From a virus (taxonomy: Duplodnaviria > Caudoviricetes), in the IMG/VR virus record IMGVR_UViG_3300017565_000031, positions 1-36,285 of that record: 36,285 bases of DNA; one strand, 5' to 3'. Positions 83 to 36,044 of this stretch are shown here, in pieces (the first letter of the stretch is position 1; every line of letters begins with the position of its first letter). Position numbers and translations under genes: made by a program. The notes below the pieces were generated by a model that made no database searches, had not been told where the DNA came from, and saw only the letters and a list, made by a program, of their open reading frames with translations.

Positions 83-123
83 GCCGCCTTAGCTCAGTCG
101 GCAGAGCATCTCACTCGTAATGA
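83..123 (+). pseudogene. 5' half of host tRNA-Thr(CGU), disrupted at attL
   Basis: GCCGCCT acceptor strand, TAGCTCAGTCGGCAGAGC D arm, TCTCA stem strand and CTCGTAA loop (anticodon CGT at 116-118). The following phage sequence supplies no T arm or 3' acceptor strand. Confidence 0.93.
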
Positions 124-413
124 TGAGGACCAGACTCGGGGGCAGGCTCGGCACTAGGCGGTCCCCATAGGAGCCAGTTCTGATCGACGCCGGTCGCGGC
201 GCTGACCTTGGTGACGACTTCGGTGATCTTCCTGGGGGAGACGCCGTTCTCATAGCGAGCCCAATCGTTCTGACCTAGGCCGCATTTGACCGATGCCTCG
301 GTTTGGTTCCAGCTCTTCGTCTGGCGGACCATCGCCAAGCGCGTACCGAACTCCGACGCGGTCGGGATCCACGCGCGTTCGGTCGCCTCGGGTACTGCAC
401 TCTGTGTTGTCAT
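111..413 (-). CDS. Immunity repressor, XRE/Cro-C1 HTH, prophage form (100 aa)
   Basis: FGTRLAMVRQTKSWNQTEAS...WARYENG...GVDQNWLLWG is an XRE-family pattern. The gene is divergent from a cro-like gene, and its frame crosses attL to stop at a TGA in host tRNA sequence (111-113). Start placed at the ATG at 413. Confidence 0.9.
   Translation of the reverse strand: MTTQSAVPEATERAWIPTASEFGTRLAMVRQTKSWNQTEASVKCGLGQNDWARYENGVSPRKITEVVTKVSAATGVDQNWLLWGPPSAEPAPESGPHHYE
117..123. repeat. attL common core GTAATGA
   Basis: Identical to 36006-36012. Joining 83-123 to 36013-36044 gives a complete cloverleaf. Confidence 0.92.
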
Positions 414-542
414 GCAACAGATAGTGGCATAAGTCGCGCATAGCGCGCAATACGCGCGCGGGTATTTCCCAGGAACGGGTGCGCGACACGCCGCAAAAGA
501 TGTGTATTGCATCTAATGCGTGGGTATGCAACACTCAGACGC
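414..542. promoter_or_regulatory. Divergent rep/cro promoter-operator region
   Basis: Minus strand: TTGCGC(450-445)-18 nt-CACTAT(426-421)-7 nt-ATG. Plus strand: TTGCAT(507-512)-17 nt-AACACT(530-535)-7 nt-ATG. Neither gene has a Shine-Dalgarno sequence. Confidence 0.6.
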
Positions 543-731
543 ATGACATCCGAAGTGTCGCATCTCACCACTAAGGAAGTGGCTAAGAGGTTCCGGGTCG
601 ATCCCTCGACCGTCCGCCGTTGGGCCGATTCCGGCTCCGTCCCGGCAACGAAGACACCGGGCGGTCGGTACCGGTTCGACGCCGCCGACATCGACGCCCT
701 CCTGACCTCCCCCGCGGAGAAGGCATCGTGA
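543..731 (+). CDS. Cro/Xis-like MerR-type HTH protein (HTH_17, BldC-like), 62 aa
   Basis: LTTKEVAKRFRVDPSTVRRWADSG...TPGGRYRF; first gene of the early operon. Confidence 0.88.
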   Translation: MTSEVSHLTTKEVAKRFRVDPSTVRRWADSGSVPATKTPGGRYRFDAADIDALLTSPAEKAS

Positions 732-1135
732 GCGAGCTCTGGCCCGTGTCCCACGAAGCCGCTGTCGCCGAGATCGAGTGGATGACGAAGCGACTCACCG
801 CGATTGCAGAAAGCGTTCGATTCGCGCTATCCGTTCCGAGTTCTTATCGATCTGCTCCGCCAGCAGATTCAACGTGGATTGCAGGGACACGAGCACGTCC
901 CGCATCCACGGGTCGATCTGCGGGTGACCAGGGCTATACGTGCGACCGCTGTGCCACGTGTGGAACGCCGCGACGTTCTCCTTCGCAGAACTCGCCATTC
1001 GCTTCTCCTTCTGTCGGTGGCCCGGAAGTTGCACCTTCCGATCTGGCCGATGCAGCCACAGTAGGAGTCGCCCCGGACACGGTGCCGCCTTCGGGCGCTG
1101 TGTCCGGGGACCCCAATGATGGGGGTGCGCGATGA
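728..1135 (+). CDS. Hypothetical protein (135 aa), overlaps an antisense ORF
   Basis: GTGA overlap with the cro stop and ATGA overlap with the next gene. Ser/Pro-rich low-complexity sequence, so coding status is uncertain. Confidence 0.4.
   Translation: MSELWPVSHEAAVAEIEWMTKRLTAIAESVRFALSVPSSYRSAPPADSTWIAGTRARPASTGRSAGDQGYTCDRCATCGTPRRSPSQNSPFASPSVGGPEVAPSDLADAATVGVAPDTVPPSGAVSGDPNDGGAR
795..998 (-). CDS. Small leftward protein (67 aa) with a C-terminal coiled coil
   Basis: Strong SD (AAGGAG) ahead of the ATG; MASSAKENVAAF...LQSTLNLLAEQIDKNSERIARIERFL has a heptad pattern. Confidence 0.6.
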   Translation of the reverse strand: MASSAKENVAAFHTWHSGRTYSPGHPQIDPWMRDVLVSLQSTLNLLAEQIDKNSERIARIERFLQSR

Positions 1136-1308
1136 AGCTCCTCCGCGACATCCTCATCGTCGCCGCTGTGTTCGTCGTCGTGTTCACCGCGATCTGTTTC
1201 GTTCCGGTCGCGTTGGCGTTGGTCTTGTGGGCGGGTGTTCTCGCTTTGTTCGTGGTCGTGCCGGTGGGTGCGATCATTCGGCGTCGGTCACTCAGGAGCG
1301 GACGATGA
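1132..1308 (+). CDS. Small membrane protein (58 aa)
   Basis: Translated by hand: MKLLRDILIVAAVFVVVFTAICFVPVALALVLWAGVLALFVVVPVGAIIRRRSLRSGR; ATGA overlaps at both ends. Confidence 0.75.
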   Translation: MKLLRDILIVAAVFVVVFTAICFVPVALALVLWAGVLALFVVVPVGAIIRRRSLRSGR

Positions 1309-1589
1309 CCGCGACCGTGATCCCGTTCATTCCCCGCCCTGTGATGGAGAGCGGTCGGGAGGGTTGTGGGCCGCGTGTCCTGCCGGATGGTTGGGCGCGT
1401 GTGTCGACCGTCGTGCGATACGGGGATGACAAGGACGCCGTGTATTGGCATGGTCCCGTCGTCGCTCGCACCCCGGACGCGATCACGTTGACGATCTACG
1501 GCGAGGACGTCACGTTCCCGTTGGAGCAGCGTGCCCTGGTGAACGGGTGCGACATGCCGGTGCGACCGGGCTGGGTGGTGTCCGAATGA
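1305..1589 (+). CDS. Hypothetical protein (94 aa)
   Basis: SD AGGAG and ATGA coupling; starts MTATVIPFIP. Confidence 0.7.
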   Translation: MTATVIPFIPRPVMESGREGCGPRVLPDGWARVSTVVRYGDDKDAVYWHGPVVARTPDAITLTIYGEDVTFPLEQRALVNGCDMPVRPGWVVSE

Positions 1590-1831
1590 GCGACACGCTC
1601 GCCGCGCTCCTGCATGTGGGGCAGACGGTGCAAACGCCCTTGTGGGATGCGGAGCTTCAGCGGCCGGCCCGCGCGGTGGTGACGTCGATCACGGCCATTG
1701 GTGAGCGTTTGCGCGTGTCCTATCGGTATCCGTCCGGGTACACGTCGGGGCAGTGGCTCAGTCCGCATGACCGTATCCCGGTCCCTGAATCGTCCGACCT
1801 GACCCCTCCTCGGCAGGTCGGCACCGGGTAG
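1586..1831 (+). CDS. Hypothetical protein (81 aa)
   Basis: ATGA coupling with the previous gene; starts MSDTLAALLH. Confidence 0.65.
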   Translation: MSDTLAALLHVGQTVQTPLWDAELQRPARAVVTSITAIGERLRVSYRYPSGYTSGQWLSPHDRIPVPESSDLTPPRQVGTG

Positions 1832-1964
1832 CGAAAGCAGGGCCGGAGAGCCCAGCTACCCGCGCGGGGGTCGGACCCGAATCGACCCCCGCACCCAAAC
1901 CACAGACAGAGAAAGCCCCCGGCGCGAACCGGGGGCACGACAACCGAAGGAATGGAGCCCTCGA

Positions 1965-3114: not shown

Positions 3115-3206
3115 ACCGCACCTGGTATCTGCTGAGCGTCATCGGCGGCAGCATCGTCGCGCTCATCGTCCTCATGGCGCTCGTGAACCTCGGGGTTCGC
3201 GCATGA
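3111..3206 (+). CDS. Single-TM micro-protein (31 aa)
   Basis: MNRTWYLLSVIGGSIVALIVLMALVNLGVRA; coupled to both neighbours. Confidence 0.65.
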   Translation: MNRTWYLLSVIGGSIVALIVLMALVNLGVRA

Positions 3207-4060
3207 GTGCGCTCACCGGCATTGTCCACGGCCTGCCCGAAGCCGACTACCACGCGCGGCCCGAACTGTCATCGACCGAAGCACGCCTGATCCTCGAGTC
3301 CCCGGCGAAGTACCGCTGGAAGAAAGACCACCCGCCGCTGGTCGCCCCGTCGAAGAAGTTCGACATCGGGTCCGCCGTTCACTCCAAGGTGCTCGGCACC
3401 GGGTACGACGTCGCGGTCATCCCTGACGAGATCCTCGCGTCCAACGGGGCGATCTCCACGAAGGAAGCGAAAGCGTTCGTGGATGAGGCACGCGCGGACG
3501 GGAAGATTCCGCTCAAGCGGGTCGACTTCGAACCGATCGACGCCGCCGCCGAATCCGTCCTCGCCCACCCGACCGCCCGAGCATTGTTCGATCAGCCCGG
3601 CGACGCCGAGGTGAGCGTGTTCGCGGAGATCGACGGCGTTCCCGTCCGAGCCCGGTTCGACTTCCTCCCCGAGCAGAGTGAGCGACGCCGGGTCGCGGTC
3701 GACTTGAAAACGGCTCGGGATGCGAGCTTCCGAGAGTTCGAACGGTCCATCGCATCACTCCGATACGACGTCCAGCGGTCCTGGTATCTCGCGGCACTCG
3801 ACGCCGTGACTGGACCGATGCCGCACGGCTTGGAACCGGAGTTCGTGTACGTCGCGGTCGAGAAGGAACCGCCCTACCTCGTCGGTGTTCACGCGATCAC
3901 CCCGCAATGGGCGGCGATCGGCGACGCGGCATCGGCGAAGGCTCGGCGGCTCTACGCGAGCTGCATGGAAGCGGGCGTGTGGCCCGGCTACCCCGAAGAA
4001 ATCCAGTACCACGCGCCCCCGACGTGGCTCGTGATCCAAGCAGAGGAAGACGATGAGTGA
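3203..4060 (+). CDS. recE: RecE/ExoVIII-like PD-(D/E)XK exonuclease
   Basis: YHARPELSST, GSAVH, RARFD...VDLKT, YDVQ..WY and VAVEKEPPY motifs; adjacent to recT. Confidence 0.9.
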   Translation: MSALTGIVHGLPEADYHARPELSSTEARLILESPAKYRWKKDHPPLVAPSKKFDIGSAVHSKVLGTGYDVAVIPDEILASNGAISTKEAKAFVDEARADGKIPLKRVDFEPIDAAAESVLAHPTARALFDQPGDAEVSVFAEIDGVPVRARFDFLPEQSERRRVAVDLKTARDASFREFERSIASLRYDVQRSWYLAALDAVTGPMPHGLEPEFVYVAVEKEPPYLVGVHAITPQWAAIGDAASAKARRLYASCMEAGVWPGYPEEIQYHAPPTWLVIQAEEDDE

Positions 4061-4865
4061 GGTTCAGGTTCGGCAGACGCCGGACATCATCCAGCAGGTC
4101 AACGCGTCGCAGTCGGGACTCGCCGCCGCCCTCGCGGACCGGATCGGTGTGGAGCGGTTCACGCGTGCCGCCGTCACGGTGCTCAGGACGACGCCCGCAC
4201 TGTCGCGATGCACACCGGAGTCGGTACTTGGCGGGTTGTTCGTCGCCGCACAACTCGGCCTCGAGATCGGTGGTCCCCGTGCCTACGCACACTTGGTCCC
4301 GTACGGCAGAGACGCGCAACTGATCGTCGGCTACAAGGGCTACGTCGAGTTGTTCTACCGGGCCGGCGCGCGTGCGGTCACAGCCGACATTGTTCGCGAG
4401 GGCGACGTGATTGAGCAGGCCACCGACGAGACGGGTCGGACCGTCATCCACTGGAAGAACGCGAATCCGCTGGACACCGACCGCGCTCCGGTAGGCGCAC
4501 TCGCGGTGGTTGTGCTGGCGTCTGGCGAGGTGTTGCAGAACTTCATGACGAAGGCGCAGATCCTCAAGCGCAAGCCGCGCACTTCAAAGGCCGGACCGTG
4601 GTCCGACTGGGAAGAGGAGATGTGGTTGAAGACGGTGCTGCGGGACACAGCCCGGACCGCACGCCTCTCGTCGGATGATCTCGCTCTCGCGGTGCAGGCC
4701 GATCAGTCGATCACGACGGGGACCGGTGAGACGGCGAAGCGTCGTCATGTGGAGGTTGGTGAGGCCGAGTTCGAGCCGGTGACGGTCGCGGAACTGACGG
4801 CCCTGGTCGACGCTGAGCTCGATCCCGCGCACCCGGACTACGTGGCATCGGCAGACGAACGATGA
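4053..4865 (+). CDS. recT: RecT ssDNA-annealing protein
   Basis: CTPESVLG..AQLGLE, HLVPY, AQLIVGYKGYVEL and GPW.D.EEMWLKTVLR motifs. Confidence 0.93.
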   Translation: MSEVQVRQTPDIIQQVNASQSGLAAALADRIGVERFTRAAVTVLRTTPALSRCTPESVLGGLFVAAQLGLEIGGPRAYAHLVPYGRDAQLIVGYKGYVELFYRAGARAVTADIVREGDVIEQATDETGRTVIHWKNANPLDTDRAPVGALAVVVLASGEVLQNFMTKAQILKRKPRTSKAGPWSDWEEEMWLKTVLRDTARTARLSSDDLALAVQADQSITTGTGETAKRRHVEVGEAEFEPVTVAELTALVDAELDPAHPDYVASADER

Positions 4866-5098
4866 GCCGCGACTTTCCTCTCACGTCCGCTGACCTCCGG
4901 TACATCGCTGACCGCGTGGACGAGGTTTGCGCGGTGGTCGACCCGCCTGACGGTGAACTGAAGGACGGCGATTGGCGCTGGGGTCTACAGGTGACGATCT
5001 GGAACCAGGACGCCGCCGACGAAGACGACGTGGCTGGTGTGGTCGCTCCTCACGGCGACGGGTGGATCGGTTTCTATCCGAAGGGAATCGACCGTTGA
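4862..5098 (+). CDS. Hypothetical protein (78 aa)
   Basis: ATGA coupling to recT. Confidence 0.65.
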   Translation: MSRDFPLTSADLRYIADRVDEVCAVVDPPDGELKDGDWRWGLQVTIWNQDAADEDDVAGVVAPHGDGWIGFYPKGIDR

Positions 5099-5409
5099 CC
5101 CCCGCCGAGCGCCTACAGGCGGCAATCGACAAGCTCGAGCGGCTCAAGGCAGAGAGCGGCTACGTCGAGTTCAACGGGTGGCTTGCAGAGCCAAACCCCG
5201 GAGACACGGTGCGATCGCACCTTGAGCCGCGCGATGACTTGAGCCCGATCACGAACGATCCGCTTCTCGTCACCTTGCATCGCACGATCGACGGGCAGAT
5301 CGGCCTCCTCCAGTACACCCTCGGGATGCTCATCCACGATGACGTGCGCGCAGGGCAACTCGATCAGGTCCTCGCCCTCGCTGACGCGATCCTCGGGGGT
5401 GCCGAATGA
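5095..5409 (+). CDS. Hypothetical protein (104 aa)
   Basis: TTGA coupling; MTPAERLQAAIDKL...ALADAILG. Confidence 0.7.
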   Translation: MTPAERLQAAIDKLERLKAESGYVEFNGWLAEPNPGDTVRSHLEPRDDLSPITNDPLLVTLHRTIDGQIGLLQYTLGMLIHDDVRAGQLDQVLALADAILGGAE

Positions 5410-6131
5410 GCGCCCGGCCGAAACTCCTCGACCTGTTCTGCTGTCAGGGCGGTGCGTCCGAAGGTTACCGGCGTGCAGGGTTCGACGTGTACGGCAACGA
5501 CATTGACCCGCAACCGCGCTACCCGTTCATGTTCACGAAGGGAGACGCGCTACTGACGCTGCGCCGACTACTCGCGGGCGATCCGGTGCCGTTCGGTGAT
5601 GGGACCGGCCGCCTCGACTGGATGCACCTGTGGGACTTCGATGCGATTCACGCGAGCCCGCCGTGTCAGACGTTCACGGCGTACCGTCGCCGTGGCGCTG
5701 GGGTCGGGGATTCCTACCTGAATCTGATCCCCGAGACCCGCGAGTTGCTCGAACGAACCGGCCTGCCCTGGGTGATCGAGAACGTCGAAGGTGCGCGCGG
5801 TGAGCTCCGCGAATCAGTCCGCGTTTGCGGGTCGTCGTTCGGGCTCGACGTTCGCAGGCATCGGCTCTTTGAGTCGAGCGAGGCAATGTCTGGAACCGTC
5901 TGCGATCACGCATGGCAGACGCCCCGTTTCCCCCCAGCTACGAATCGCACGAACTTGCGCCGCACTGTCGAGGTAGGCGTCTGGCGTATTCCGCTGAACG
6001 TGCAGCAGGACGCGATGGGTGGGCTGGAGTGGATGACTCTCCGTGGGCTGTCCGAAGCGATCCCGCCGGCCTACACCGAGTTCATTGGCACCCAGCTCCT
6101 CGCTTCCCTCTCTGGGGAGGTGACCGCATGA
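5406..6131 (+). CDS. DNA (cytosine-5) methyltransferase, short phage type
   Basis: Motif I LLDLFCCQGG, motif IV SPPCQ, motif VI IENV, motif VIII RRHRLF, and C-terminal EAIPPAY. Confidence 0.88.
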   Translation: MSARPKLLDLFCCQGGASEGYRRAGFDVYGNDIDPQPRYPFMFTKGDALLTLRRLLAGDPVPFGDGTGRLDWMHLWDFDAIHASPPCQTFTAYRRRGAGVGDSYLNLIPETRELLERTGLPWVIENVEGARGELRESVRVCGSSFGLDVRRHRLFESSEAMSGTVCDHAWQTPRFPPATNRTNLRRTVEVGVWRIPLNVQQDAMGGLEWMTLRGLSEAIPPAYTEFIGTQLLASLSGEVTA

Positions 6132-6844
6132 CCTGCAAGAAGAAGAAGCCGTCCGAGTTTACGGAAGCAGTTGGCACATGCCGGCACTGTGGCTCGGAGC
6201 TTCTGCAGAAGCGCGGAGAGAGCCGGGGACACTTCAGCACTCGGAAGTTCTGTGACCTCGATTGCTACCAAGCGAATGTTGATGTGCCGTGCTCATACCC
6301 AGGATGTGGTGGACGAAAGCTGGCGCGGGGATTGTGCTCAAAGCACTACGCCCGCGTTCGAGCAAACGGCTCCCCAGAAGTCGTCCGTCGCATAGTCGGA
6401 GCTTCGCTCGCCGAGCGTCTAGCCGCGTATTCCCGGCCCGATGGGGACTGTCTTGTTTGGTTTGGGGGTACTCACCGGAGTGGTCACGGGAAGATTCAAG
6501 TCTCGGGCAGGTCTATTGGTACGCACCGCATCGCATTCATCGAAGCGTATGGGCCGATTCCTGAAGGCTTGGTTGTTCGTCACAAGTGCGACAACCCACC
6601 GTGCATTCGCCCGGAGCATCTTGAGTTGGGGACCTCTGCGGACAATACGAACGACCGGACGATCCGAGGTCGAACGTCTACCGCGAGACGCAAACTCGAC
6701 GCCACGCAAGTGGTTGAAGTTCGGAGGCGAATCTTGGCGGGCGACTTCAAGCGAGACATTGCTATGGATTTCGGCGTCGTTCCGACTGTGATCTCCAATA
6801 TCGCACTTGGCCGTGCCTACGTCGGGGTGGGGGTGACGGTGTGA
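6128..6844 (+). CDS. HNH endonuclease with N-terminal Cys clusters and a C-terminal HTH
   Basis: THRIAF...VVRHKCDNPPCIRPEHLELGTSADN; several CxxC motifs; KRDIAMDFGV HTH. Confidence 0.88.
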   Translation: MTCKKKKPSEFTEAVGTCRHCGSELLQKRGESRGHFSTRKFCDLDCYQANVDVPCSYPGCGGRKLARGLCSKHYARVRANGSPEVVRRIVGASLAERLAAYSRPDGDCLVWFGGTHRSGHGKIQVSGRSIGTHRIAFIEAYGPIPEGLVVRHKCDNPPCIRPEHLELGTSADNTNDRTIRGRTSTARRKLDATQVVEVRRRILAGDFKRDIAMDFGVVPTVISNIALGRAYVGVGVTV

Positions 6845-7248
6845 TCCCGAAATCGCTCGTGAAGCGAGTCCTGGCCCGTGACCACGGCATGTGCGTGATC
6901 GCCGGCCCGCCCTGCACTCGTGACGCCACAGTCGCTGACCATCGCGTCAATCGTGGGCATGGCGGATCGAAGGTACTGAACGATCTCGCGAACCTGATCG
7001 CCGCGTGCGGGCTGTGCAACGGATGGAAAGAGGACGTGGACGGCGAAGCTCTCATCGAGCTGCGCCGTCGCGGCGTCCGAGTGCAACCCGACTCGACTCA
7101 TGCGAAGTCGCTCCTGCGCGCACAGATCACCCCGGTCGAGTATCCGAACGGCATGGTCGTCATCCTCACGTCGTCAGGCGATCGGCTCGCACAGGTGCTC
7201 ATGAAGTCCGCGGGTGTGTCGATCCACGCGGACAGGAAGGTCAGCTGA
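6841..7248 (+). CDS. Small HNH endonuclease-like protein
   Basis: VLARD..MC...C...DHRVNRGHGG...NLIAACGLCN. Confidence 0.8.
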   Translation: MIPKSLVKRVLARDHGMCVIAGPPCTRDATVADHRVNRGHGGSKVLNDLANLIAACGLCNGWKEDVDGEALIELRRRGVRVQPDSTHAKSLLRAQITPVEYPNGMVVILTSSGDRLAQVLMKSAGVSIHADRKVS

Positions 7249-7919
7249 TGGCGAAGGAGATTCGCACAGTCAAACGTGACCTGTGGCGTTCGGACGATTT
7301 CAACGGCCTGTCCCGTGACGCTCGCCTCACATGGGTTGCGCTCATCAGCTACGCGGACGACCACGGCAGGTTCAAAGCCGACCCTCGGGAACTGTGGGCG
7401 TTCGCATGGTTGCACGACGGCGACATGCATGTGGAGGACGTCGGTCACCACCTGGCCGAGATGGTCGAGCGGGGCATGATTCACGCCTATTCGGTGGACG
7501 GTCGGGACTATTTCGAGATCCCAACATGGTCGAAGCATCAGCGGGTGGATAACGCGGCGAAGTCTCCTATTCCTGCCCCTCGCGGCGATTCGCCGCAGTC
7601 TGCCGCGGTTCGCGGCGAACTGCCGCACGCTGCCGCTGGAGGGGAGGGGAGGGGAGAGGAAGGGAGGGGAGATGCCGCGGACCGCGGCGAACCCCCCGCC
7701 CCGTTCTGCTCGAAGCATCCCGGCGGTACGGATGATCCGTGCCGGGCGTGCGGGAACGCGCGTCGTCGTCGGGATGAGTGGGATGCGGAGGTTCGTAATC
7801 GGGCGACTCCGACTCCGAAGCGTGGTCCGTGCGATCACTCGAAAGCAACCAAGCAGGGTCTGACGGTGTGCGAGTGCGATGCGCGACTCGAGGACGGCGT
7901 ATGGAGGGCAGTCGCATGA
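7248..7919 (+). CDS. Putative replication initiator (223 aa)
   Basis: IRTVKRDLW...LSRDARL.W..L.SYADDHGRF...W.KHQR N-terminus, a repeat-encoded linker, and a C-terminal CSKHP...CRAC region, as in actinophage initiator-like proteins. Confidence 0.7.
   Translation: MAKEIRTVKRDLWRSDDFNGLSRDARLTWVALISYADDHGRFKADPRELWAFAWLHDGDMHVEDVGHHLAEMVERGMIHAYSVDGRDYFEIPTWSKHQRVDNAAKSPIPAPRGDSPQSAAVRGELPHAAAGGEGRGEEGRGDAADRGEPPAPFCSKHPGGTDDPCRACGNARRRRDEWDAEVRNRATPTPKRGPCDHSKATKQGLTVCECDARLEDGVWRAVA
7581..7692 (+). repeat. Imperfect 30-bp tandem repeats plus a polypurine tract inside the initiator gene (candidate ori)
   Basis: CGCGGCGATTCGCCGCAGTCTGCCGCGGTT (7581-7610), CGCGGCGAACTGCCGCACGCTGCCGCTGGA (7611-7640), G/A-only tract 7638-7672, and a partial copy at 7673-7692. 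Confidence 0.65.
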
Positions 7920-8980: not shown

Positions 8981-9288
8981 GTCAGGTCAAGATCCGCAAT
9001 ATCACCGCGACGGTCGAGGGCAGTGACCTGTGGCGGGCTGAGTCGAAACTCGGTGCGGATGGGCTGCGGTCGGGGATTACGGCCGCGGTCGAGTCGGCGG
9101 TGCGAGTCATGGCGACATCGGGGCATCGGTCCCTGTCGGCGCGCGTCGCGGAACTGCATCGTGCGGGCTTGTGTGACGCGTTGATCGCAGGCGAGCTGAA
9201 CGTCGTGAAGTACCGCGTCGGTGATATTCGCCGGCGTCTCGGATTGGAACCGAACCGGTGCCACCGGTCGGGAGGAAGGCGACAGTGA
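8977..9288 (+). CDS. Hypothetical protein with a C-terminal HTH
   Basis: VAELHRAGLCDALIAGELNV...VGDIRRRLGL. Confidence 0.65.
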   Translation: MSQVKIRNITATVEGSDLWRAESKLGADGLRSGITAAVESAVRVMATSGHRSLSARVAELHRAGLCDALIAGELNVVKYRVGDIRRRLGLEPNRCHRSGGRRQ

Positions 9289-9308
9289 ACGTCCTCAAAT
9301 CCCCGGAT

Positions 9309-9330
9309 TCGAACGTCCGTTCGATAGAAT
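9309..9330 (+). promoter_or_regulatory. LexA (SOS) box abutting a -10 element
   Basis: TCGAAC-GTCC-GTTCGA (9309-9324) matches the actinobacterial consensus TCGAAC-N4-GTTCGA exactly and is followed immediately by TAGAAT (9325-9330). Confidence 0.8.
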
Positions 9331-9410
9331 CAAAGCGGCCCCAAACCGAGTGCGCTAACACTCGCCGGGGCCTAACCCTCAACCAAGGTCTAGTTGATTG
9401 GAGGGCTACC

Positions 9411-11774: not shown

Positions 11775-11777
11775 GAG

Positions 11778-11963: not shown

Positions 11964-11966
11964 GAG

Positions 11967-19337: not shown

Positions 19338-19345
19338 GGAGTGTC

Positions 19346-22612: not shown

Positions 22613-22627
22613 GGGGGGTGACCTGAG

Positions 22628-23047: not shown

Positions 23048-23054
23048 TCAAGCC

Positions 23055-23122: not shown

Positions 23123-23126
23123 TCGC

Positions 23127-24104: not shown

Positions 24105-24159
24105 CGTGGCCGCCGGCGACTGAGACTGCGGTGCCGCCGCGTCGTGAGGAGGTGCGCTG

Positions 24160-25852: not shown

Positions 25853-25855
25853 CCC

Positions 25856-27889: not shown

Positions 27890-28725
27890 TCATCGAACTG
27901 GCGGGTATCACGTTCGCGGATTCAGGTCGTGGTTGGGTGTTCGCCGATCTCGTGGACTGGTACACGGTTCCCGACTCGAAGGCAGAAGATGAGTCGATTC
28001 CGCAGGGTCATGGGTCGTTTGATCCCGGCGTGGATTGGCGGTCTTCGGCGGCGATTTCGTTCACGGCTGCGTATATCGGCAACTCAGCAGCGGAAGTACT
28101 TGAGGCGGTCGAGGAGTTCAACTCTGCCGGGACGTCTGAGGACATCCAGGTCATGCGCGTCACTGATGTGTTGCGGGCGACGAGTCGGCAAGTATCGATC
28201 CGCCGTATCGGTGTACCAGACTTCTATAACTACGACTCGTTCGAAGCACAGTTCGCGGTGGATGTGCTCGCGTGGGATCCGCTGCGGTATGGCGATCCTG
28301 TAGTCACAACTACGGGTTTGCCGTCCTTGTCGGGTGGTCTCGCGTTCCCGATTGTGTTCCCGATTGATTTCGCGTCGGCTGGTGATCCGGGGCGCCTGGT
28401 CTTGACGAACGCGGGTAAGCAGCCATCGCGGCCGCAGTTCACAGTGACGGGTGGGTTGGCTGGCGGGTTCTCGCTGGTCTGTATTGAGACGGGGCAGGAG
28501 ATCCGTTTCGAGTTCCCGCTGTCGGTCTCGGACGTCGTGACAGTGGATGCTCGGTCGGGTCAGGCGTGGATCAATGACGAGTCGAATGTCCTCTCGGGCT
28601 ACCTCACAAAGTCGGAGTGGTTCCCAGTGCCGGCTGGTGGGGTGCGGACGGTGCAGTTCAATGCGATCGGCGCGGTCACGGGGACGCCGACGTTGACGGG
28701 CATTGTGTCCCCGGCTTGGTTGTGA
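27886..28725 (+). CDS. Distal tail (Dit)-like minor tail protein
   Basis: Follows the tape measure gene; A.DPLRYG, GGLAFPIVFPIDF and N.G....P motifs. Confidence 0.8.
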   Translation: MIIELAGITFADSGRGWVFADLVDWYTVPDSKAEDESIPQGHGSFDPGVDWRSSAAISFTAAYIGNSAAEVLEAVEEFNSAGTSEDIQVMRVTDVLRATSRQVSIRRIGVPDFYNYDSFEAQFAVDVLAWDPLRYGDPVVTTTGLPSLSGGLAFPIVFPIDFASAGDPGRLVLTNAGKQPSRPQFTVTGGLAGGFSLVCIETGQEIRFEFPLSVSDVVTVDARSGQAWINDESNVLSGYLTKSEWFPVPAGGVRTVQFNAIGAVTGTPTLTGIVSPAWL

Positions 28726-28732
28726 GGTTGTC

Positions 28733-29983
28733 GTGGAGGTTGTGACGCGGGTTCTGATCGGGGATCTGCTGACGGGGCGTCGCATTCTCGATATTCCGTA
28801 CTCGAAGTTGTCGTGGAGTGTGTCGCGGAATGCGGCCGAGTCGATCAGCTTGACGGTGCCGTTGACGTCTCGTCTGGTGCGTCGGTTGGATTTGCGCAAC
28901 GCGACGACGCCGGCGAAGACGTTCATGGCGGTCTTGTTGGATGATGTGCCGATTGCGGCGGGTCCGATTTGGCGTCGCCAGTATGCGAAGGCGACCGGGT
29001 TGTTGGATCTCGCGGCGGCGGGCATGTGGTCGTATTTCGATCACCGGCACATCATTCCGGCATTGGCTGCATCGCAGGGTGTGGTGGATCCGGTGACGGG
29101 TGAGTCGATCAACGACACGGTCTTGACGAATCTGTCGTACGGGACGATCGCGAAGCGCATCGTGCAGCAGGCTCGCACTTGGACGGGCGGCAACGTGCCG
29201 ATCGTGTTCCAGGATGATGAGGCTGGAACGTACACGCGCACCTATTTGGGTGCGACGCTCAAGAAAGTTGGCGAAGCCCTCGCGGACTTCATCGACTTGA
29301 GGAACGGCATCGACATTCGCTTCCAGCCGCGGTTCACGTCGGACCGGCTTGGCATCGAATGGGTGTTGCAGACCGGGACTCTCACGCAGCCGTATCTTCG
29401 TTCCCCGCAGGTGCATCGTTGGGATTACACGGTCCCGAAGCCGTCGATCCGGAACCTGTCCGAAGTGGAGGACGCGTCTCGGATGGCGGGGCTCGCGTGG
29501 TTCACGTCGGGCCGTCAGGAGGGTACGGCCCTCGCGGTCCAGTCCTCAGATGGTGTGCTGGCGGGTGCGGGGTATCCGCTGCTTGAACTCGCGGATGCGT
29601 CCCATTCGGATGTGACGATCGAAGCGACGTTGCAGGAGTATGCGGACAACGCGATCCTCCTGGGTCGGGCACCGATGTCGGCGTGGTCGTTCGAAGCGAA
29701 AGCGTCGGGCAGTCCGCGTGCGGGCCAGTATTGGCCGGGCGATCTTGCGGAGATCCTGGTTGGCGATGATCCGTGGCTCGGAAACCGTTGGGGCACGACG
29801 GTGCCGACCGATCTTCTGCCAGCCCCGGACCTGTATCCGTCCGATGATCTCCTCCCGGATGGTGGGTCGTTCTATTTCCCACCGAAGCCGGTGACGCATG
29901 TGCGGGAGATCGCGTCGATCTCGGGGGATGAGAAGAGCCGTTGGGTTTCCGTTGTGACCGAAGAGCAGATTGAGGTGAGCTGA
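28733..29983 (+). CDS. Baseplate hub / Tal-like minor tail protein
   Basis: IGDLLTGR, AAGPIW and YPLLE...HS.V....TL..YA motifs; start uncertain (28733 or 28742). Confidence 0.8.
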   Translation: MEVVTRVLIGDLLTGRRILDIPYSKLSWSVSRNAAESISLTVPLTSRLVRRLDLRNATTPAKTFMAVLLDDVPIAAGPIWRRQYAKATGLLDLAAAGMWSYFDHRHIIPALAASQGVVDPVTGESINDTVLTNLSYGTIAKRIVQQARTWTGGNVPIVFQDDEAGTYTRTYLGATLKKVGEALADFIDLRNGIDIRFQPRFTSDRLGIEWVLQTGTLTQPYLRSPQVHRWDYTVPKPSIRNLSEVEDASRMAGLAWFTSGRQEGTALAVQSSDGVLAGAGYPLLELADASHSDVTIEATLQEYADNAILLGRAPMSAWSFEAKASGSPRAGQYWPGDLAEILVGDDPWLGNRWGTTVPTDLLPAPDLYPSDDLLPDGGSFYFPPKPVTHVREIASISGDEKSRWVSVVTEEQIEVS

Positions 29984-31278
29984 TGCCGTTCGATCCGATC
30001 GTCTTCGCGGACCGTAGTAAGCCGGCGTTGAATGCGGCCGCGCTCGCGCATATGCAGACGCAGTACGACCAGGCTGTTGCGGATGCTGCTACGGCAGCAA
30101 ATGCCGCATATGGGCAGGTGTTCCAGGTGTCGGCATACGAGACGATCCACGCCGCCTATGCGGCTCTCGTCAGCGCGGGCGGCGGCACGCTTCAGATTCG
30201 TGGTGACGTTTCCGTGGAAACCGATTTCATTATGAGCGAGAACGTGACATGCCTGGTTGATGGGTACGGAGGGCGGCTCCTTCCTGCGCCGGGTGTCATC
30301 GCCCTCGGCATGGAAGTTGGACCATCCGACGTGACGTTGATTGCCGTCGAGGGGCTCGAGATCGATGCCACCAACCAGGGCGGAACGGCGGGTGGCGCAA
30401 CCGGAATCCGAGTGAAGGACCACCTCGGCGCAGTGATCCGCGACGTTGTTATCAAGCAGTGCGCGACAGGCATCCTCATCACCGATAGCCCCGGAAAGTG
30501 GTCGGAGTCATCCCAGCTCGATGCCGTCCGTATCGAGGAATGCGCGATCGGGATCGACGTGCAGAACGACGGCGGCACTGGATCATTCGGCTATGCCGGT
30601 TGGGGGCGCGTCGCGATCTACGGTGTCCCCGAAGGCGGCGTCGGCTTCCGTGTCGGTGCTGGCGCAAACCTATACCACTTCACGCTCGCGCGGCTCGTGG
30701 TGCAGACGTCAGGCGCCGTCGCGTCGGGCACCGCGACCCTTATGGAAGTCGCTGGAGTCATCCGACGCGACAGTACGATCAACGCTGTATTTGAGTCCTC
30801 GGCCTCAGCATTCTCGGGCACCCGAAACGGCCTGGCGCTCGTCTCGGGCGCGACCATCGACGGCCTGGGCCTCCGTGCCTATTTTCAAGGCACGTTCACG
30901 AACAAGATCTACAACCCCGCGACAGTCGCATTCCAGTTCCGCGAGGACAACGACCGCGACTTGAAGGCCAGCGCCTCCGGGCAAGACCTCGCCGACTATT
31001 GGGTGTTCGGCGACGCATTCGCGCGGACGATCATGAGACCCGGCCGCATCATGCTGGGGTCCGGCGCGGCGGCCCCGGACGCGCAGATTGTGCGCTGGGG
31101 CCCCGACCTGGCGGGGCCGGACACGGGCGACTCATGGCGTGTCGACGGCACCTGGAACGGCGGCAATCTCCGCCTCGGCAACTACCGGCTATGGGTCGAC
31201 GCATCAGGGAATCTTCGCATCAAGTCCTCGGCCCCGTCCTCGGATATGGACGGCACGGTAGTCGGCGCTCAGTCCTGA
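29983..31278 (+). CDS. Tailspike / receptor-binding protein, pectin-lyase-like beta helix
   Basis: IHAAYAAL...GGGTLQI, beta-helix-like repeats (GIRV, GILI, GIDV), and C-terminal LWVDASGNLRIKSSAPSSDMDGTVVG. Confidence 0.75.
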   Translation: MPFDPIVFADRSKPALNAAALAHMQTQYDQAVADAATAANAAYGQVFQVSAYETIHAAYAALVSAGGGTLQIRGDVSVETDFIMSENVTCLVDGYGGRLLPAPGVIALGMEVGPSDVTLIAVEGLEIDATNQGGTAGGATGIRVKDHLGAVIRDVVIKQCATGILITDSPGKWSESSQLDAVRIEECAIGIDVQNDGGTGSFGYAGWGRVAIYGVPEGGVGFRVGAGANLYHFTLARLVVQTSGAVASGTATLMEVAGVIRRDSTINAVFESSASAFSGTRNGLALVSGATIDGLGLRAYFQGTFTNKIYNPATVAFQFREDNDRDLKASASGQDLADYWVFGDAFARTIMRPGRIMLGSGAAAPDAQIVRWGPDLAGPDTGDSWRVDGTWNGGNLRLGNYRLWVDASGNLRIKSSAPSSDMDGTVVGAQS

Positions 31279-31358
31279 CAAGACCGGTTATCTGCCCCAC
31301 TCGGCGAGCTCGGAAGTCTCGTCGAGTTCGTTGCTTTCCTTCCGTGAGGAGCAGATCG

Positions 31359-32036
31359 ATGCCACGTAGAGGACTGCCCGAGGAGGGCGCGGGTGAGATC
31401 GCTGCCGTGTTCAAACGGCAAGATCGCCGTCTTCGCATGTTGGAGATGCCGACTGGGGAGCAGTTGGCTCGTGCGCTGGAGAAGGTCCAGCAACTCATCA
31501 CGGATCTGCCGGGACTGGTTGCAGCAGCAGCGACGTCGTTCCTGTCGACCGGCTTCACGACGGGGAGTATGACGGCGACGGGGGATGTGACGTCCGCCAC
31601 GGGCACTGTCACCGGGGCATTCCACAACCCGAACATCATCACGAACCAGATCACCACCCCGCGCACGAGCGTGTGGGCGCAGGACTCGGACGGGCTACTC
31701 GGCTGGGCGTCGTCGTCGCGCACGCAGAAGGACAACATCCGGGATTCCGGCGTCGACCCCCGCGCAGTGCTTCAGATCAGCTCTGTCTTGTTCAACTACA
31801 AAGCCGAGCTCGAGAAGCACGCCCTCGACCCCGAGTACGTCGTCGCCGACGAGTTCGGCGCGATCGCTGAGGATCTCCACGACCTCGGGCTCGGCGTCGT
31901 CGTCGACTACTGGCCTGACGGGTCACCGCGAGGCATCAACTACACGATGCTCGGACTGCTCGCAGTCGAAGCCGCGAAGCACCTCGACGCGCGGCTGACT
32001 GCGGTTGAGGGTCGTCTGGACGCTGCGGGGCTCTAG
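31359..32036 (+). CDS. Minor tail protein with an intramolecular chaperone (peptidase S74-like) domain
   Basis: SSSRTQKDNI...FNYK...GAIAEDL...GINY and a terminal coiled coil. Confidence 0.8.
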   Translation: MPRRGLPEEGAGEIAAVFKRQDRRLRMLEMPTGEQLARALEKVQQLITDLPGLVAAAATSFLSTGFTTGSMTATGDVTSATGTVTGAFHNPNIITNQITTPRTSVWAQDSDGLLGWASSSRTQKDNIRDSGVDPRAVLQISSVLFNYKAELEKHALDPEYVVADEFGAIAEDLHDLGLGVVVDYWPDGSPRGINYTMLGLLAVEAAKHLDARLTAVEGRLDAAGL

Positions 32037-32410
32037 TCCTCAAGCCACGCGACGCACTGATCGCCCTCGCCGTACTTCACGCACTGTTGGCCTTGGTCGT
32101 TCAGATCGTGGCAGTTCGACTCGTTGCCGTACTCGTCCACGTGGTTGGCGATCGTCCCTTCCGGGCATAGCACCGGCTGGGGTGGCACCTCGACCTGGAC
32201 CGGTTCAGGCGCTGGCACGGCGACCTCGACGACCGGTTCCGGCGTCGGAGTCGGTGTGGCCTTCGGTGCGGGGGTGACTTCCGCGATCTGAACCACGGTC
32301 GGGGTCGGTTCCGGTGCTGGGGTTTGCCCGCCGAGCGCGAACGCGGTCGCACCCGCGGCGATGACCAACGCACCACCACCGGCAATACCGCCGATCAGCC
32401 AACGATTCAT
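32033..32410 (-). CDS. Membrane-anchored Pro/Thr-linker protein with a 4-Cys domain, reverse-oriented moron (125 aa)
   Basis: N-terminal TM/signal segment, PTPTPEP linker, CPEG...C...C...C; TACACT -10 lies 7 nt before the ATG. Confidence 0.8.
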   Translation of the reverse strand: MNRWLIGGIAGGGALVIAAGATAFALGGQTPAPEPTPTVVQIAEVTPAPKATPTPTPEPVVEVAVPAPEPVQVEVPPQPVLCPEGTIANHVDEYGNESNCHDLNDQGQQCVKYGEGDQCVAWLED

Positions 32411-32453
32411 GCGGCCGAGTGTACGCCGCACTCACGACAAGAGGGAGTACCCA

Positions 32454-33614
32454 ATGACGCTAGGTGATGGTTTCCCCGCCGGTAGCGGCACCGTCGACTC
32501 GACCGAACTGCGGAAGGCCCTCGCCGGACTAATCCTGCGGGACACGTCCGGGAACGCTCGCGCAGGCATCTTCCCTGCACACACGTCCGCGCTCGTCACG
32601 GCGAAGGCATCCATGGCGGTCGACGTCGCCGCGTTCACTGGCTGCACGGTGCGTGGTGGTGGTCCGATCTTCATGGCGAACGACGGCACCGTCACCGTCA
32701 GTGTCGATGCGGCACCTGGATCGAACTCCCGCATCGATGTCGTCTACTTCAAGCAGAACGAGTCCGCCTCCCCGTATTCGGATGCGAATGACAATCCGGT
32801 CTTCGGGGTGGAGAAGGGCACCGCGGGCGCTGTCCCGGTGAAGCCCACCATTCCCACGGGTGCGGTCGAGCTTGCAACGATCCTCATCCCGTCCGGGGTG
32901 TCGGCGACGAACGCAGGCGGCGTGGTCATCACGCAAACATTCCCGTTCACCGCAACCACAGGCGGACCCATCTGGGTCCGCAACGCAACCGAACGCGGCG
33001 CACTCAGCACCTACCCGGCAGGCACCCGAGTACGGCAACTCGACACTGCACACACGTACGAAAGCAACGGCACGGTATTGACCACCGTCGAGGCCGAAAC
33101 ACGGATCCTGCCCACGTCAGTCGCCGGCACGGGTGTGACGTTGGACACGGCAGCCGCCATCGTCGCGTTCACCGCCTCGTCCTCGATCTCCATCAACGGA
33201 TGCTTCACCGCGGAGTTCAACGAGTACCGGATCATCATCGACATCGCGTCGGCTTCAGCAGGCGCATCGATTACGTTCCGCTTCCGCGCGTCTGGCACTG
33301 ACCTGTCCTCATCCTCCTACTCGCAGCTCATCGAAACTGTGTCCGGTACGTCGATCGCGGTCACCTCGCCAGCCACTGCGACCTCCGGCCGGTTCGGTCA
33401 AACCCAGACCACCGGAGCGCACATTGTGGCCAGGGTGACCCGTCCTGCTTCCACCGCGAACCCGAAGCTCGCATACGGCGACACGGACGACCCGACCCCA
33501 GTGAAGCAGCGCGTGACGAACTCGATCGCCTCGGCCACGTCGTTCGACGGAATCACGATCATTCCGTCTACGGGGAACATCACTGGAACCGTTCGCATCA
33601 TCGGAATCCGCTAG
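32454..33614 (+). CDS. Minor tail / tail fibre protein (386 aa)
   Basis: AAPGSNSRIDVVY...P.IPTGAVELA N-terminal region and ISINGCFT..F..YRI...FDGITI...G.ITGTVRI.G C-terminal region. Confidence 0.8.
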   Translation: MTLGDGFPAGSGTVDSTELRKALAGLILRDTSGNARAGIFPAHTSALVTAKASMAVDVAAFTGCTVRGGGPIFMANDGTVTVSVDAAPGSNSRIDVVYFKQNESASPYSDANDNPVFGVEKGTAGAVPVKPTIPTGAVELATILIPSGVSATNAGGVVITQTFPFTATTGGPIWVRNATERGALSTYPAGTRVRQLDTAHTYESNGTVLTTVEAETRILPTSVAGTGVTLDTAAAIVAFTASSSISINGCFTAEFNEYRIIIDIASASAGASITFRFRASGTDLSSSSYSQLIETVSGTSIAVTSPATATSGRFGQTQTTGAHIVARVTRPASTANPKLAYGDTDDPTPVKQRVTNSIASATSFDGITIIPSTGNITGTVRIIGIR

Positions 33615-34267
33615 TGCGAATCCAGCTACTCCGACCAGCACCGGGACACGTTTCGACGACGTTCGCGGAACATGCGGCCCGTGCTGTTGTCTACCTGTTC
33701 TGCGGCATTGACTTCGGCTGGTCGACGTCGGCGGACTGGCGAGTCACAGCTGCCACATCTGGTCGAGTGATCTTCGCCGGCTACTCCGGCAAGGACTACG
33801 GCAACCTCGTCGTCATCGACCACGGCAACGGGATCACGACCTGGTATGCCCACCTCGACTCGTTCACCGTGACAGTCGGTCAGATGGTCGTCGCCGGACA
33901 GCACCTCGGCGTGATGGGTTCCTCCGGGAACGCCAAGGGACGGCACTTGCATTTCGAGTTGCGGATCAACGGTGTGCAGGTCGACCCGGAACCCTATTTC
34001 GTCAACTCAATCCTCGATTTGGAGAAGGCCATGTATGCAGTTCGGAACAAGCGTGGGTCGATCTGGCTCATCTCGGGTGGTTCGGTTGTCGTGCCGATGA
34101 ACGGGGCCCAGTGGGCGGCGGTCGGTAAAGCGTTCCCTGGTCTGCCGCTCGTCCAGTTCGACACTGACGCTGACGCTGACAAGTTCGTAGCGTCATTCGC
34201 CGGCTCGACGAGTGTGACGCAGTTCACGTTGGTGCCGTCCGGTCAGATCGACCTCGTCGCGAAGTAG
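33614..34267 (+). CDS. Endolysin, M23 peptidase
   Basis: GIDF, YGNLVVIDH, TWYAHL, G.MGSSGN..G.HLHFE, VDPEPY; precedes the holin. Confidence 0.9.
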   Translation: MRIQLLRPAPGHVSTTFAEHAARAVVYLFCGIDFGWSTSADWRVTAATSGRVIFAGYSGKDYGNLVVIDHGNGITTWYAHLDSFTVTVGQMVVAGQHLGVMGSSGNAKGRHLHFELRINGVQVDPEPYFVNSILDLEKAMYAVRNKRGSIWLISGGSVVVPMNGAQWAAVGKAFPGLPLVQFDTDADADKFVASFAGSTSVTQFTLVPSGQIDLVAK

Positions 34268-34276
34268 GAGGAACCC

Positions 34277-34534
34277 ATGTCTGAGATCATCCCCAGTCCG
34301 GTGAAGCTTGCTGCGAAGCGCGCGTTCATCCGCACACTCGCGCAGGGGTACGCGACCACACTCGGCGGCACGGTCGTGTCGGTGCCGATCATCCTCGGAC
34401 TCATCCAGGGCACGGAAGCATGGGTGCCGATCATCGTCGCCGTCGCCGTCGCTGTCGTGTCGCCGTTCATCGGTGCTGCGGCCGCGTACTTCGGAATGCT
34501 GCGCGACGGCATCCCCGACGAGTACAAGGGCTGA
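34277..34534 (+). CDS. Holin
   Basis: 85 aa with two hydrophobic segments and a RAFIRT.AQ N-terminus; follows the endolysin. Confidence 0.75.
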   Translation: MSEIIPSPVKLAAKRAFIRTLAQGYATTLGGTVVSVPIILGLIQGTEAWVPIIVAVAVAVVSPFIGAAAAYFGMLRDGIPDEYKG

Positions 34535-34536
34535 GC

Positions 34537-34770
34537 GTGAGCGAGGGTCTCGCGGTCGCGATCATCTCCGCGATCGTCGTGGCGGGCGGCGCGGGGCTGA
34601 CGTTCATCACGACGCAGCTCGTACGCCTCAACCGCCGGATCCAGAAGCTCGAGAAACGCGACCGTCTCTCGTGGCTGTACATCCGCTCACTGATTGATCA
34701 CGGCTATAAGCACGCCCCGCACGTTCCGCTGCCTGAGCCGCCCGAAGGTTGGCTCGAAGACACTGAGTAG
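34537..34770 (+). CDS. Lysis-cassette membrane protein (TM plus coiled coil)
   Basis: N-terminal TM segment, RIQKLE, WLYIRSLIDH, PLPEPP. Confidence 0.75.
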   Translation: MSEGLAVAIISAIVVAGGAGLTFITTQLVRLNRRIQKLEKRDRLSWLYIRSLIDHGYKHAPHVPLPEPPEGWLEDTE

Positions 34771-34828: not shown

Positions 34829-34888
34829 CGTGTTCCCGGACAAAGCCGCTTGTTAGGACGCTCCCCGCGCCCGACCGTGCGGTATGAG

Positions 34889-34963
34889 TGGAGCCCTCGG
34901 TCAGGATTGAACTGACGGCCTTCCCATTACGAGTGGGATGCTCTACCACTGAGCTACGAGGGC
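34889..34963 (-). tRNA. Phage-encoded tRNA-Thr(CGU), intact, CCA encoded
   Basis: GCCCTCG TA GCTC AGTGGTA GAGC A TCCCA CTCGTAA TGGGA AGGCC GTCAG TTCAATC CTGAC CGAGGGC T CCA folds fully; anticodon at 34931-34929. Confidence 0.96.
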
Positions 34964-34973
34964 GCGGTCCACG

Positions 34974-35003
34974 ATCCTACGCGGCGAGGCGTTCCGTTTC
35001 CAA
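34974..35003 (-). promoter_or_regulatory. Candidate promoter of the phage tRNA inside the integrase 3' end
   Basis: TTGGAA-18 nt-TAGGAT; the -10 includes the int stop codon and lies 10 nt before the mature tRNA. Confidence 0.55.
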
Positions 35004-35831
35004 CTCGGCGGGGAGTTGCAGCACGTTGCTCGCCTCCTGCATCTTCCAGCCGCTGACGAGCGTGTAGATCTGCGTCGACTGCACCGACTCGTGGCGCATC
35101 ATCTCCTTCACCACGATCACGTCGATACCGTTCTCTAGGAGTTCGGTGGCGTGGTAGTGGCGCAGCGAATGAGGGGTGCTCCTGACCCCGGCGACGACCA
35201 TCACATGGTGAATGGATGAGTGGACGGCTTTGCGGCTGACGTGCGGACTGTCGCCCTGGTAGGCGGGAAACCATAGGCCCTCACGCGGGAACCCGGCATT
35301 GGTCGCGTAGTCCTCCACGACGTGGCTGAGCGGAATCGGTTTTGTCTTCCCACCCTTGGACGGCACCCATACGACGCGCGCACCCCAGTCGATCCATGAG
35401 CCGTCGAACGCGGCGATCTCGAACGTGCGTAGGCCCATGAACGCGGCGAGGAGGATCATCATCCGCCCGCGTCGGCGCTTCACATGCGCGAGCATCGCGG
35501 CGAGCTGCGCGGGGGAGACGGGGTGGGGCACACCCTTGGGTCGGCTCATCACCGGCACTTCGTCCATCGGGTTCGTGCGCCGACGCTTAGACGCGACGAG
35601 CCACGCACAGTAGGACCGGAGTGCGGTTTGGTATGTCCACCGGGTGACGGCTGCGAGTCCTTTGCGTCCAAGGAATGCGATGAGTTGCGCGGACGTGAAC
35701 TTGAGCGGGTGCGCGCCGGAGAACGCGATGAACTGGCGCAGGATTCGCTCGCGTTCGGTGATGGTTCGTTCGCTCAGATGTTTGACCTGTTGCCAGGCGC
35801 GCCAGTCGGCGCAGACGCGGTCAACGTGCAT
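34977..35831 (-). CDS. int: Tyrosine integrase (284 aa), no apparent arm-binding domain, C-terminal -RLAA
   Basis: Catalytic residues R (GLRTFE), K (SKGGK), HSLRH, and H...Y (RHESVQSTQIYT); SD GGAGG. Confidence 0.95.
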   Translation of the reverse strand: MHVDRVCADWRAWQQVKHLSERTITERERILRQFIAFSGAHPLKFTSAQLIAFLGRKGLAAVTRWTYQTALRSYCAWLVASKRRRTNPMDEVPVMSRPKGVPHPVSPAQLAAMLAHVKRRRGRMMILLAAFMGLRTFEIAAFDGSWIDWGARVVWVPSKGGKTKPIPLSHVVEDYATNAGFPREGLWFPAYQGDSPHVSRKAVHSSIHHVMVVAGVRSTPHSLRHYHATELLENGIDVIVVKEMMRHESVQSTQIYTLVSGWKMQEASNVLQLPAELETERLAA

Positions 35832-35945
35832 GGGTCCTCCCTCGGGTCGGCGGATGTCAGGAGGCTAGGTCGGCGCGGCATAGCGACACACGCCCAATAG
35901 GGGGGTTAGATTCGGGACCGCCCGCTCAGATGGGGTCCAGGACCT

Positions 35946-36005
35946 CTATGCGACCCGTGATCCGATCCAGGGTCCGATAGCGACCTCTCGGGGAGTGGTG
36001 GCCTT
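35946..36005 (-). other. Detached 3' end of the repressor gene (19 codons plus TAG), in frame only in attP
   Basis: Continuing the repressor frame from the core into attR-side phage DNA reads KATTPREVAIGPWIGSRVA*, with the stop at 35948-35946. Confidence 0.85.
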
Positions 36006-36012
36006 GTAATGA
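36006..36012. repeat. attR common core GTAATGA
   Basis: Identical to 117-123. Confidence 0.92.
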
Positions 36013-36044
36013 GAAGGTCGTGGGTTCGATTCCCACAGGCGGCT
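36006..36044 (+). pseudogene. 3' half of host tRNA-Thr(CGU) at attR
   Basis: TGAGA pairs with TCTCA (109-113); GTGGG-TTCGATT-CCCAC is the T arm; AGGCGGC pairs with GCCGCCT (83-89). No D arm lies upstream. Confidence 0.93.

Follow-up and report, generated by a model that had tools for sequence, protein, structure and literature searches.

The question raised by this locus is whether a single crossover can both split a host tRNA gene and change the C-terminus of a phage repressor, in a phage that itself carries a copy of the split tRNA. The locus is a 36,285-nt stretch of viral DNA (IMG/VR record IMGVR_UViG_3300017565_000031; hereafter the window), which corresponds to G000:C17:35996-72280 in a metagenome assembly of 2.26 Mb (70.6% GC, 97.8% complete). 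The relatives of this host, G000, point to an actinobacterium. Besides a repressor and a Cro-like gene, the prophage of about 36 kb in the window has genes for recombination, replication and lysis, a full virion module and an integrase. It carries the sequence features of two mechanisms, integration-dependent immunity and tRNA-dependent lysogeny, which are treated as separate in the literature (PMC10865867, PMC12582341; the papers cited in this text were covered in part, and statements about them refer to those parts). We found that the layout combining these two described mechanisms is real and recurrent, and it would join two controls of lysogeny that the literature presents apart.

Attachment sites, repressor and integrase

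The left end of the prophage carries the 5ʹ half of a host tRNA-Thr(CGU) gene (83..123, + strand), which ends in the core of the left attachment site (attL; 117..123, + strand). The right end carries the core of attR (36006..36012) followed by the 3ʹ half of the same tRNA, up to 36044 (+ strand). The core, GTAATGA, occurs at exactly these two places in the window, both strands counted. When 83-123 and 36006-36044 were joined by script, ARAGORN returned a fully paired tRNA-Thr(cgt), and neither junction alone gave a tRNA at a relaxed threshold; Rfam scored attL at 29.1 bits, with the T arm absent. The site is empty in two congeners, G001 and G002, where the two genes that flank it enclose an unsplit tRNA-Thr(CGT). 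As in tRNA-dependent lysogeny, the two ends share a short core at a tRNA attB, and the tRNA is rebuilt at neither of them. Rebuilding at attL was considered and rejected, as the sequence there agrees with the host 3ʹ half at 17/37 positions, fewer than the 20-22 seen after shuffling, and would be at most a relic. The last repressor codons (124-163) possibly derive from a decayed tRNA 3ʹ half, with an identity not above chance; within them, AGGCGG (156-161) has the potential to pair with the acceptor strand of the host, from a position 9 nt more distal than a tRNA would have it.

The same core lies in the reading frame of the repressor. In the prophage, the repressor (111..413, − strand; PHROG 2328, E 4.9e-16) has 100 aa and ends in PHHYE: its frame crosses the core and, two codons on, ends inside host tRNA sequence, where the tRNA 5ʹ half, read on the opposite strand, supplies the last codon and the TGA stop. 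On the far side of the core, a detached tail of 19 codons ending in RVA (35946..36005, − strand) continues the repressor frame. The predicted phage form has 118 aa, and integration trades its 19-residue tail for one residue. Because the core lies inside the repressor frame, the phage and the prophage have different repressor C-termini, as in integration-dependent immunity.

A natural attP was present in a metagenome contig, L182, whose integrase is 87% identical to that of the window. Its repressor frame continues without a stop past the core and on into a homologous tail that ends in RVS, with no tRNA 3ʹ half, and it is followed by the integrase and then by the first bases of a tRNA of the window type. 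As far as the start of the tRNA, L182 shows the contiguous leftward cassette of repressor, integrase and tRNA that the original prediction had drawn for the circular phage. Between the window and L182 the tail differs by 8 synonymous and 5 non-synonymous changes in 22 codons and the stop is kept, so that the tail is under selection as protein. A further sequence, L181, has a second attR with a window-like tail and tRNA, in another host.

The presence of a 7-bp core in both the tRNA anticodon arm and the repressor frame, also part of that prediction, was confirmed, and the exchanged segment could be narrowed. The overlap is likely the 6 bp TAATGA at 118-123 (tRNA positions 36-41), with arms CCT/ACT and AGG, and not the 7-bp identity, because the sequence shared by relatives starts at tRNA position 36 and three of them (G273, G187 and G072, described below) share exactly 6 bp between attL and attR, at positions 36-41. 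For 37 relatives with a long core, Brujita included, scoring of the best host tRNA match began at position 36, and the preceding bases are mostly unlike the host anticodon.

The tyrosine integrase (34977..35831, − strand; 284 aa) ends in ERLAA. It is 40% identical to the integrase of Brujita and aligns with it end to end, with no arm-binding domain. The host tmRNA tag also ends in LAA, and the host encodes ClpX. Repressor and integrase are co-directional and adjoin each other in the phage form, and a Cro/excisionase-like HTH gene (543..731, + strand; 62 aa; phrog_66, E 3.4e-11) diverges from the repressor, which is the layout of integration-dependent immunity. By analogy with the class defined in PMC3694055, the repressor tail is likely a ClpXP degradation tag, the loss of which would stabilise the repressor. 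Among 48 free-form cassettes of relatives, most repressor tails end in AA and several in VA.

A phage tRNA-Thr(CGU) with an encoded CCA (34889..34963, − strand; 71.2 bits) lies 14 nt after the integrase on the same strand. A possible -10 hexamer for it, TAGGAT (34974..34979, − strand), overlaps the integrase stop and was noted by eye. The disrupted host gene is single-copy, as in tRNA-dependent lysogeny, and the phage copy is the only credible tRNA-Thr(CGT) in G000, an assembly that is 97.8% complete and in which tRNAs can go unassembled. A second ARAGORN call of tRNA-Thr(cgt), on contig C53, was rejected as spurious, with a mispaired acceptor and no consensus loops. Among 1821 host ORFs picked by a crude procedure, ACG makes up 52% of Thr codons.

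The same arrangement in other phages

The original prediction had proposed a survey for repressors that run through the attachment site, with a short core and an isotype-matched tRNA beside the integrase. This survey returned four integrated and four free cases in addition to the window. Among 239 loci with an integrase homolog, many of them without flanking DNA and two (L086, L160) without upstream DNA, a tRNA lay within 60 nt of the integrase stop in 12, and 48 held free repressor-integrase cassettes. A long tRNA 3ʹ half, defined as at least 27/37 matches against a shuffled background of 20-22, was retained in 37 of these 48, which are not independent rows. Only one of the 36 long-core cassettes with downstream DNA has a tRNA adjoining the integrase (L163, opposite strand). 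By comparison, a tRNA-Lys(TTT) adjoins the integrase in four of the 11 cassettes that lack the long core (L116, L149, L226, L238), and the repressor tail of each contains TAATCC.

One integrated Lys case, G428, came from a motif search across 401 genomes; in it, virion genes lie between the halves of a split tRNA-Lys(TTT). Its repressor is cut to end in SSD, the detached tail ends in AA, and the phage tRNA lies between this tail and the integrase. A homologous integrase was present in 18 of 400 genomes of the window's family, with an adjacent tRNA-Arg(TCT) in three (G273, G187, G072), for which the far ends were traced. In all three, a split host tRNA-Arg(TCT) runs into the repressor, and the tails end in AA, AA and, in G187, GAR. 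In total, four further integrated cases (one Lys, three Arg) combine a split tRNA, a truncated repressor and a cognate phage tRNA. Another intact copy of the split isotype was not found for any of them among the matches listed. For Lys and Arg cases alike, a host base, that at tRNA position 35, finishes the repressor stop codon; completion of the stop by a host base is known for some M. abscessus prophages (PMC8092301).

In a quick tree, the short-core systems stood in about five places, and the window clade nested among long-core Thr systems (support 93). Placing all 13 short-core rows in one clade was rejected (p-AU 2e-81); this group was defined by att structure after the first tree was seen, and the trees were quick ones without bootstrap. 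The short-core integrases are not one clade, and the pairing recurs in several unrelated phage lineages.

Other searches returned no further members. The split-Lys motif had no match in viral contigs and the split-Thr motif had three, none from the window's family. A DNA search found no GenBank phage with the integrase plus an adjacent tRNA. In Ewald, Dogfish, WST1, Jojo24, Fireball, DirtyBoi and Walrus, no tRNA was present in the region fetched, and the repressor ends appeared by eye to be of the long-core type.

Phages of Arthrobacter cluster FF are probably cultured examples of the fused system. In all four that were fetched (Elesar, Cole, QuinnAvery and Zaheer; L340, L341, L367, L368), the repressor tail contains an att-like TAATCC site, and a tRNA-Arg(TCT) whose overlap is unlike that of the site adjoins the integrase. 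Their repressor tails end in AA, VA or TA, and all four integrases end in AA. The tail DNA is common to 14 records of eight phages. A matching overlap was present in one Arthrobacter host tRNA-Arg(TCT), and also in Lys(TTT) and CAT tRNAs. The cluster FF tRNA and lysogens have been reported with no role given for the tRNA in the parts covered of PMC13097055, PMC12821334 and PMC12628072, and the covered part of PMC13097055 proposes neither an attP nor a tRNA role. Most FF phages carry two integrases; the fetched region of Elesar contains one. The fused system would give a role to this unexplained tRNA-Arg, and it is testable at once, as these phages form lysogens in culture. The att-like site has perfect CCTT/AAGG arms, with a decayed T-arm-like stretch alongside.

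Several other arrangements were noticed among the relatives. In L163 (9500-10914) and L153, a long-core tRNA-Lys cassette is accompanied by an intact tRNA-Lys(TTT) after the integrase on the opposite strand, possibly an intermediate between long-core and short-core systems. In L032/L105 and L057, a tRNA-Arg(CCT) or a tRNA with a CAT anticodon lies directly downstream of the integrase homolog on the opposite strand. Upstream, L032 carries the 3ʹ half of a tRNA-Thr, which means that its isotypes mismatch. An unrelated low-GC element in L292 (400-650) apparently splits tRNA-Thr(CGT) after the anticodon arm and contains, some 130 nt in from its end, a tRNA-Thr(CGT) as replacement. G428 holds a second armless integrase (L333; G428:C1:719621-720421) with a detached tail ending in AA upstream, which suggests another integration-dependent immunity element.

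The altered overlap of the phage tRNA

The phage tRNA of the window carries TAATGG, with a compensating stem change, in place of the TAATGA of the attachment sites. Host tRNA-Thr(CGT) genes in the fetched loci had TAATGA in 40 of 45 calls, TAATGC in four and TAATGG in one; this sample was biased by the queries and includes some duplicates. The overlap of the phage tRNA differs from that of the att site in 12 of the 14 short-core cases in which both parts were visible. The difference is reciprocal in the Arg systems: the three prophages have TAATCT in att and TAATCC in the tRNA, and cluster FF has the reverse. Overlap mismatches strongly impair tyrosine recombination (PMC10865867). The phage tRNA thus likely escapes its own integrase, from which, in the window, the one-base difference in the overlap would protect it. 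When integration vectors are built from cassettes of this kind, a mismatched overlap in the phage tRNA would also be an easy design rule.

The single host gene with TAATGG belongs to the congener G001. At its host locus (G001:C17:12646-12729; L002 1798-1870, L261), in the host orientation, it has a tRNA-Thr(CGT) identical to that of the phage, and the 11-nt leader of this tRNA matches the variant in L181. Among 400 family genomes, G001 is the sole one with more than 90% identity, and no homologous integrase was found in it. The G001 assembly is fragmented, with 6% contamination; a Logan contig supports the left junction, and one run with the prophage also has the G001 locus. Capture of the tRNA from a phage is the simpler reading because closer and more distant congeners of G001 keep the family-type tRNA, and the reverse direction is possible. 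As a joint proposal, which we advance tentatively, a class of three-part switches, made up of a tagged repressor, an armless integrase and a tRNA proof against that integrase, would have evolved several times in actinophages, the cluster FF phages would be its unrecognised cultured members, hosts could capture the protected tRNA, and the swap in G001 would have destroyed attB and made this host immune to lysogenisation by this family of phages.

Mechanism, alternatives and precedents

The explanation that we consider fairly likely is that one crossover splits the host tRNA and trims a degron from the repressor, while the phage tRNA replaces that of the host. The phage inserted into the anticodon arm through a short core that also sits in the repressor frame, and this single crossover split the tRNA and removed the 19-residue repressor tail. 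Tail loss would stabilise the repressor and likely switch immunity on, and the tRNA next to the integrase, presumably with its own promoter, would likely replace the broken host gene. The ancestor of the system may have been a long-core switch of the Brujita type, which acquired a tRNA and whose repressor gene shed the tRNA 3ʹ half. Mutants in the integrase and mutants in the tRNA are each predicted to lysogenise poorly. The phage tRNA would matter for establishing and keeping the lysogen, and would not act as an addiction module, because precise excision restores the host tRNA gene.

Some observations weigh against this explanation. The host retains tRNA-Thr(UGU), which may read ACG, so the dependence of the cell on the phage tRNA may be partial. 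A promoter/terminator scan returned no sites, and none upstream of the phage tRNA. The repressor tail ends in RVA rather than the canonical AA, that of L182 in RVS and that of G187 in GAR, and the integrase of G428 ends in LAG. In L226 and G428, two of the 14 cases above, the phage tRNA keeps the att overlap and differs solely in the right arm, by a variant that is also present in some host tRNA-Lys genes. The tRNA-Arg(TCT) target of cluster FF is a prediction, because the matching overlap comes from one Arthrobacter host other than the strain Arthrobacter globiformis B-2979, and Lys(TTT) and CAT tRNAs share it. An attP junction of this phage was absent from the Logan contigs of six runs (X1-X6), and such contigs drop rare forms; no RNA run with it was listed. 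A 46-nt contig with an intact tRNA (X3/X6) was rejected as a sign of excision, as it could derive from other taxa.

Were the split tRNA dispensable, the locus would be an ordinary case of integration-dependent immunity with a short core, and the phage tRNA would serve growth or the lytic phase. The retained tRNA-Thr(UGU) speaks for this, since modified tRNA-Thr(UGU) decodes ACG in Mycobacterium bovis (PMC8394870), and thrW has been deleted in Salmonella strains, where it is dispensable (10.1101/2024.04.04.588050). We nevertheless hold it to be unlikely. ACG is the major Thr codon in the crude ORF set of this host, and the adjacent tRNA is always of the split isotype, be it Thr, Lys or Arg, and is nearly absent from long-core systems. 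Under the established wobble rules, moreover, no tRNA other than Lys(TTT) and Arg(TCT) is known to read AAA and AGA, respectively, so that dispensability could not cover the Lys and Arg relatives.

The reverse simplification, tRNA-dependent lysogeny with an att site that merely overlaps the repressor end, would require that the tail is no degradation tag and that both repressor forms work. The tail ends RVA, RVS and GAR fit this, but the tail is under constraint at the protein level, tails ending in AA or VA prevail in free-form cassettes, and the order of repressor, integrase and cro with a tagged armless integrase fits a defined class (PMC3694055); we regard this account as very improbable. 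Hardly credible is a reading in which the locus is an artefact of assembly or results from a prophage in decay that inserted once, illegitimately. The sequence does come from a metagenome assembly, and the lack of an excised form in the Logan contigs would agree with it. However, attL (in run X1) and attR (in X2 and X4) are bridged by individual Logan contigs with zero differences, in runs that may themselves be source samples; L181 has the same attR in another host, L182 has the attP, and the virion genes look complete.

The combined switch, which we prefer, has relatives on both sides. With Brujita, BPs and Charlie (PMC3694055) it shares leftward rep and int, rightward cro, attP within rep, and an armless integrase with a tagged C-terminus; the Rep tail, which ends in RVA or RVS, may be a tag as well. 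It also shares the crossover register of Brujita, in which the match to the host tRNA-Thr begins at TAATGA. However, in Brujita the tRNA is rebuilt from a 37/37 copy of its 3ʹ half in the repressor gene, whereas here the match is 17/37 and the tRNA stays split; the phage tRNA after int is a further difference from Brujita. With the tRNA-dependent lysogeny of Fionnbharth, LeBron and Gaia (PMC10865867) it shares a short core in the anticodon region, an unrebuilt tRNA and a phage tRNA of the same isotype. The integrases of that study are lambda-like with an arm-binding domain, in contrast to the armless one here, and its targets are Lys-TTT, Ile2-CAT and Leu-CAA; the core of its sole Thr-CGT entry in the part covered, Hestia, measures 52 bp, and this entry lacks a tRNA. 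The essentiality of the tRNA was demonstrated in those systems, whereas here it is a possibility. The present systems would add armless integrases to tRNA-dependent lysogeny and widen its targets to Thr-CGT and Arg-TCT. For a question raised by the same paper, our tree offers a direction, from long core to short core, at least in the window clade.

The nearest precedent is the tandem prophage prophiT36-2a/2b (PMC9934374), in which both members have integration-dependent immunity at a tRNA-Thr(cgt) site, and in which a phage tRNA-Thr(cgt) was speculated to complement the impaired tRNA at attL. It differs in having a 40-bp core with acceptor-stem mismatches and an unsplit tRNA, and in that the spare tRNA is in the second prophage, about 2 kb from attR and outside the int cassette. 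The claim that the two mechanisms are fused therefore stood as to a real and recurrent layout, for which we found no description in the literature searched, while its novelty is narrowed by this precedent. Broussard 2013, Lunt and Hatfull 2016 and the paper supplements were not covered by the search, and a prior mention in them is possible. Both terms occur in PMC12646305 and PMC12699233. Other papers describe long-core or unrelated cases (PMC6109161, PMC12429752, 10.64898/2026.10.29.762952). Some Gordonia phages have tagged repressors and no findable attP (PMC5559632), and a short core is a possible reason why searches for long cores missed the attP of many actinophages.

Two further stretches of genes in the window lie on the + strand. 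The early region (3203..15897) contains a RecE/RecT-like pair, methyltransferases, HNH genes, a replication initiator, SSB and an exonuclease; two DNA methyltransferases and two HNH genes lie at 5406-9893. The stretch 17844..34770 contains terminase, portal, protease, capsid, tape measure and minor tail genes, together with the lysis genes for a peptidase endolysin and a membrane protein, and a glycosyltransferase lies among the virion genes (22953-24104). Between the lysis genes and the phage tRNA, a GC-rich hairpin followed by a T run (34787-34830) was seen by eye and is likely a terminator; the scan made no call there. Elsewhere in the host genome, two tRNA-Gly(CCC) calls lie 12.5 kb apart on a contig of lower GC (G000:C35:17556-17627 and 30062-30134), and the second, which has a degenerate 5ʹ part, is a candidate for the distal att site of some integrated element.

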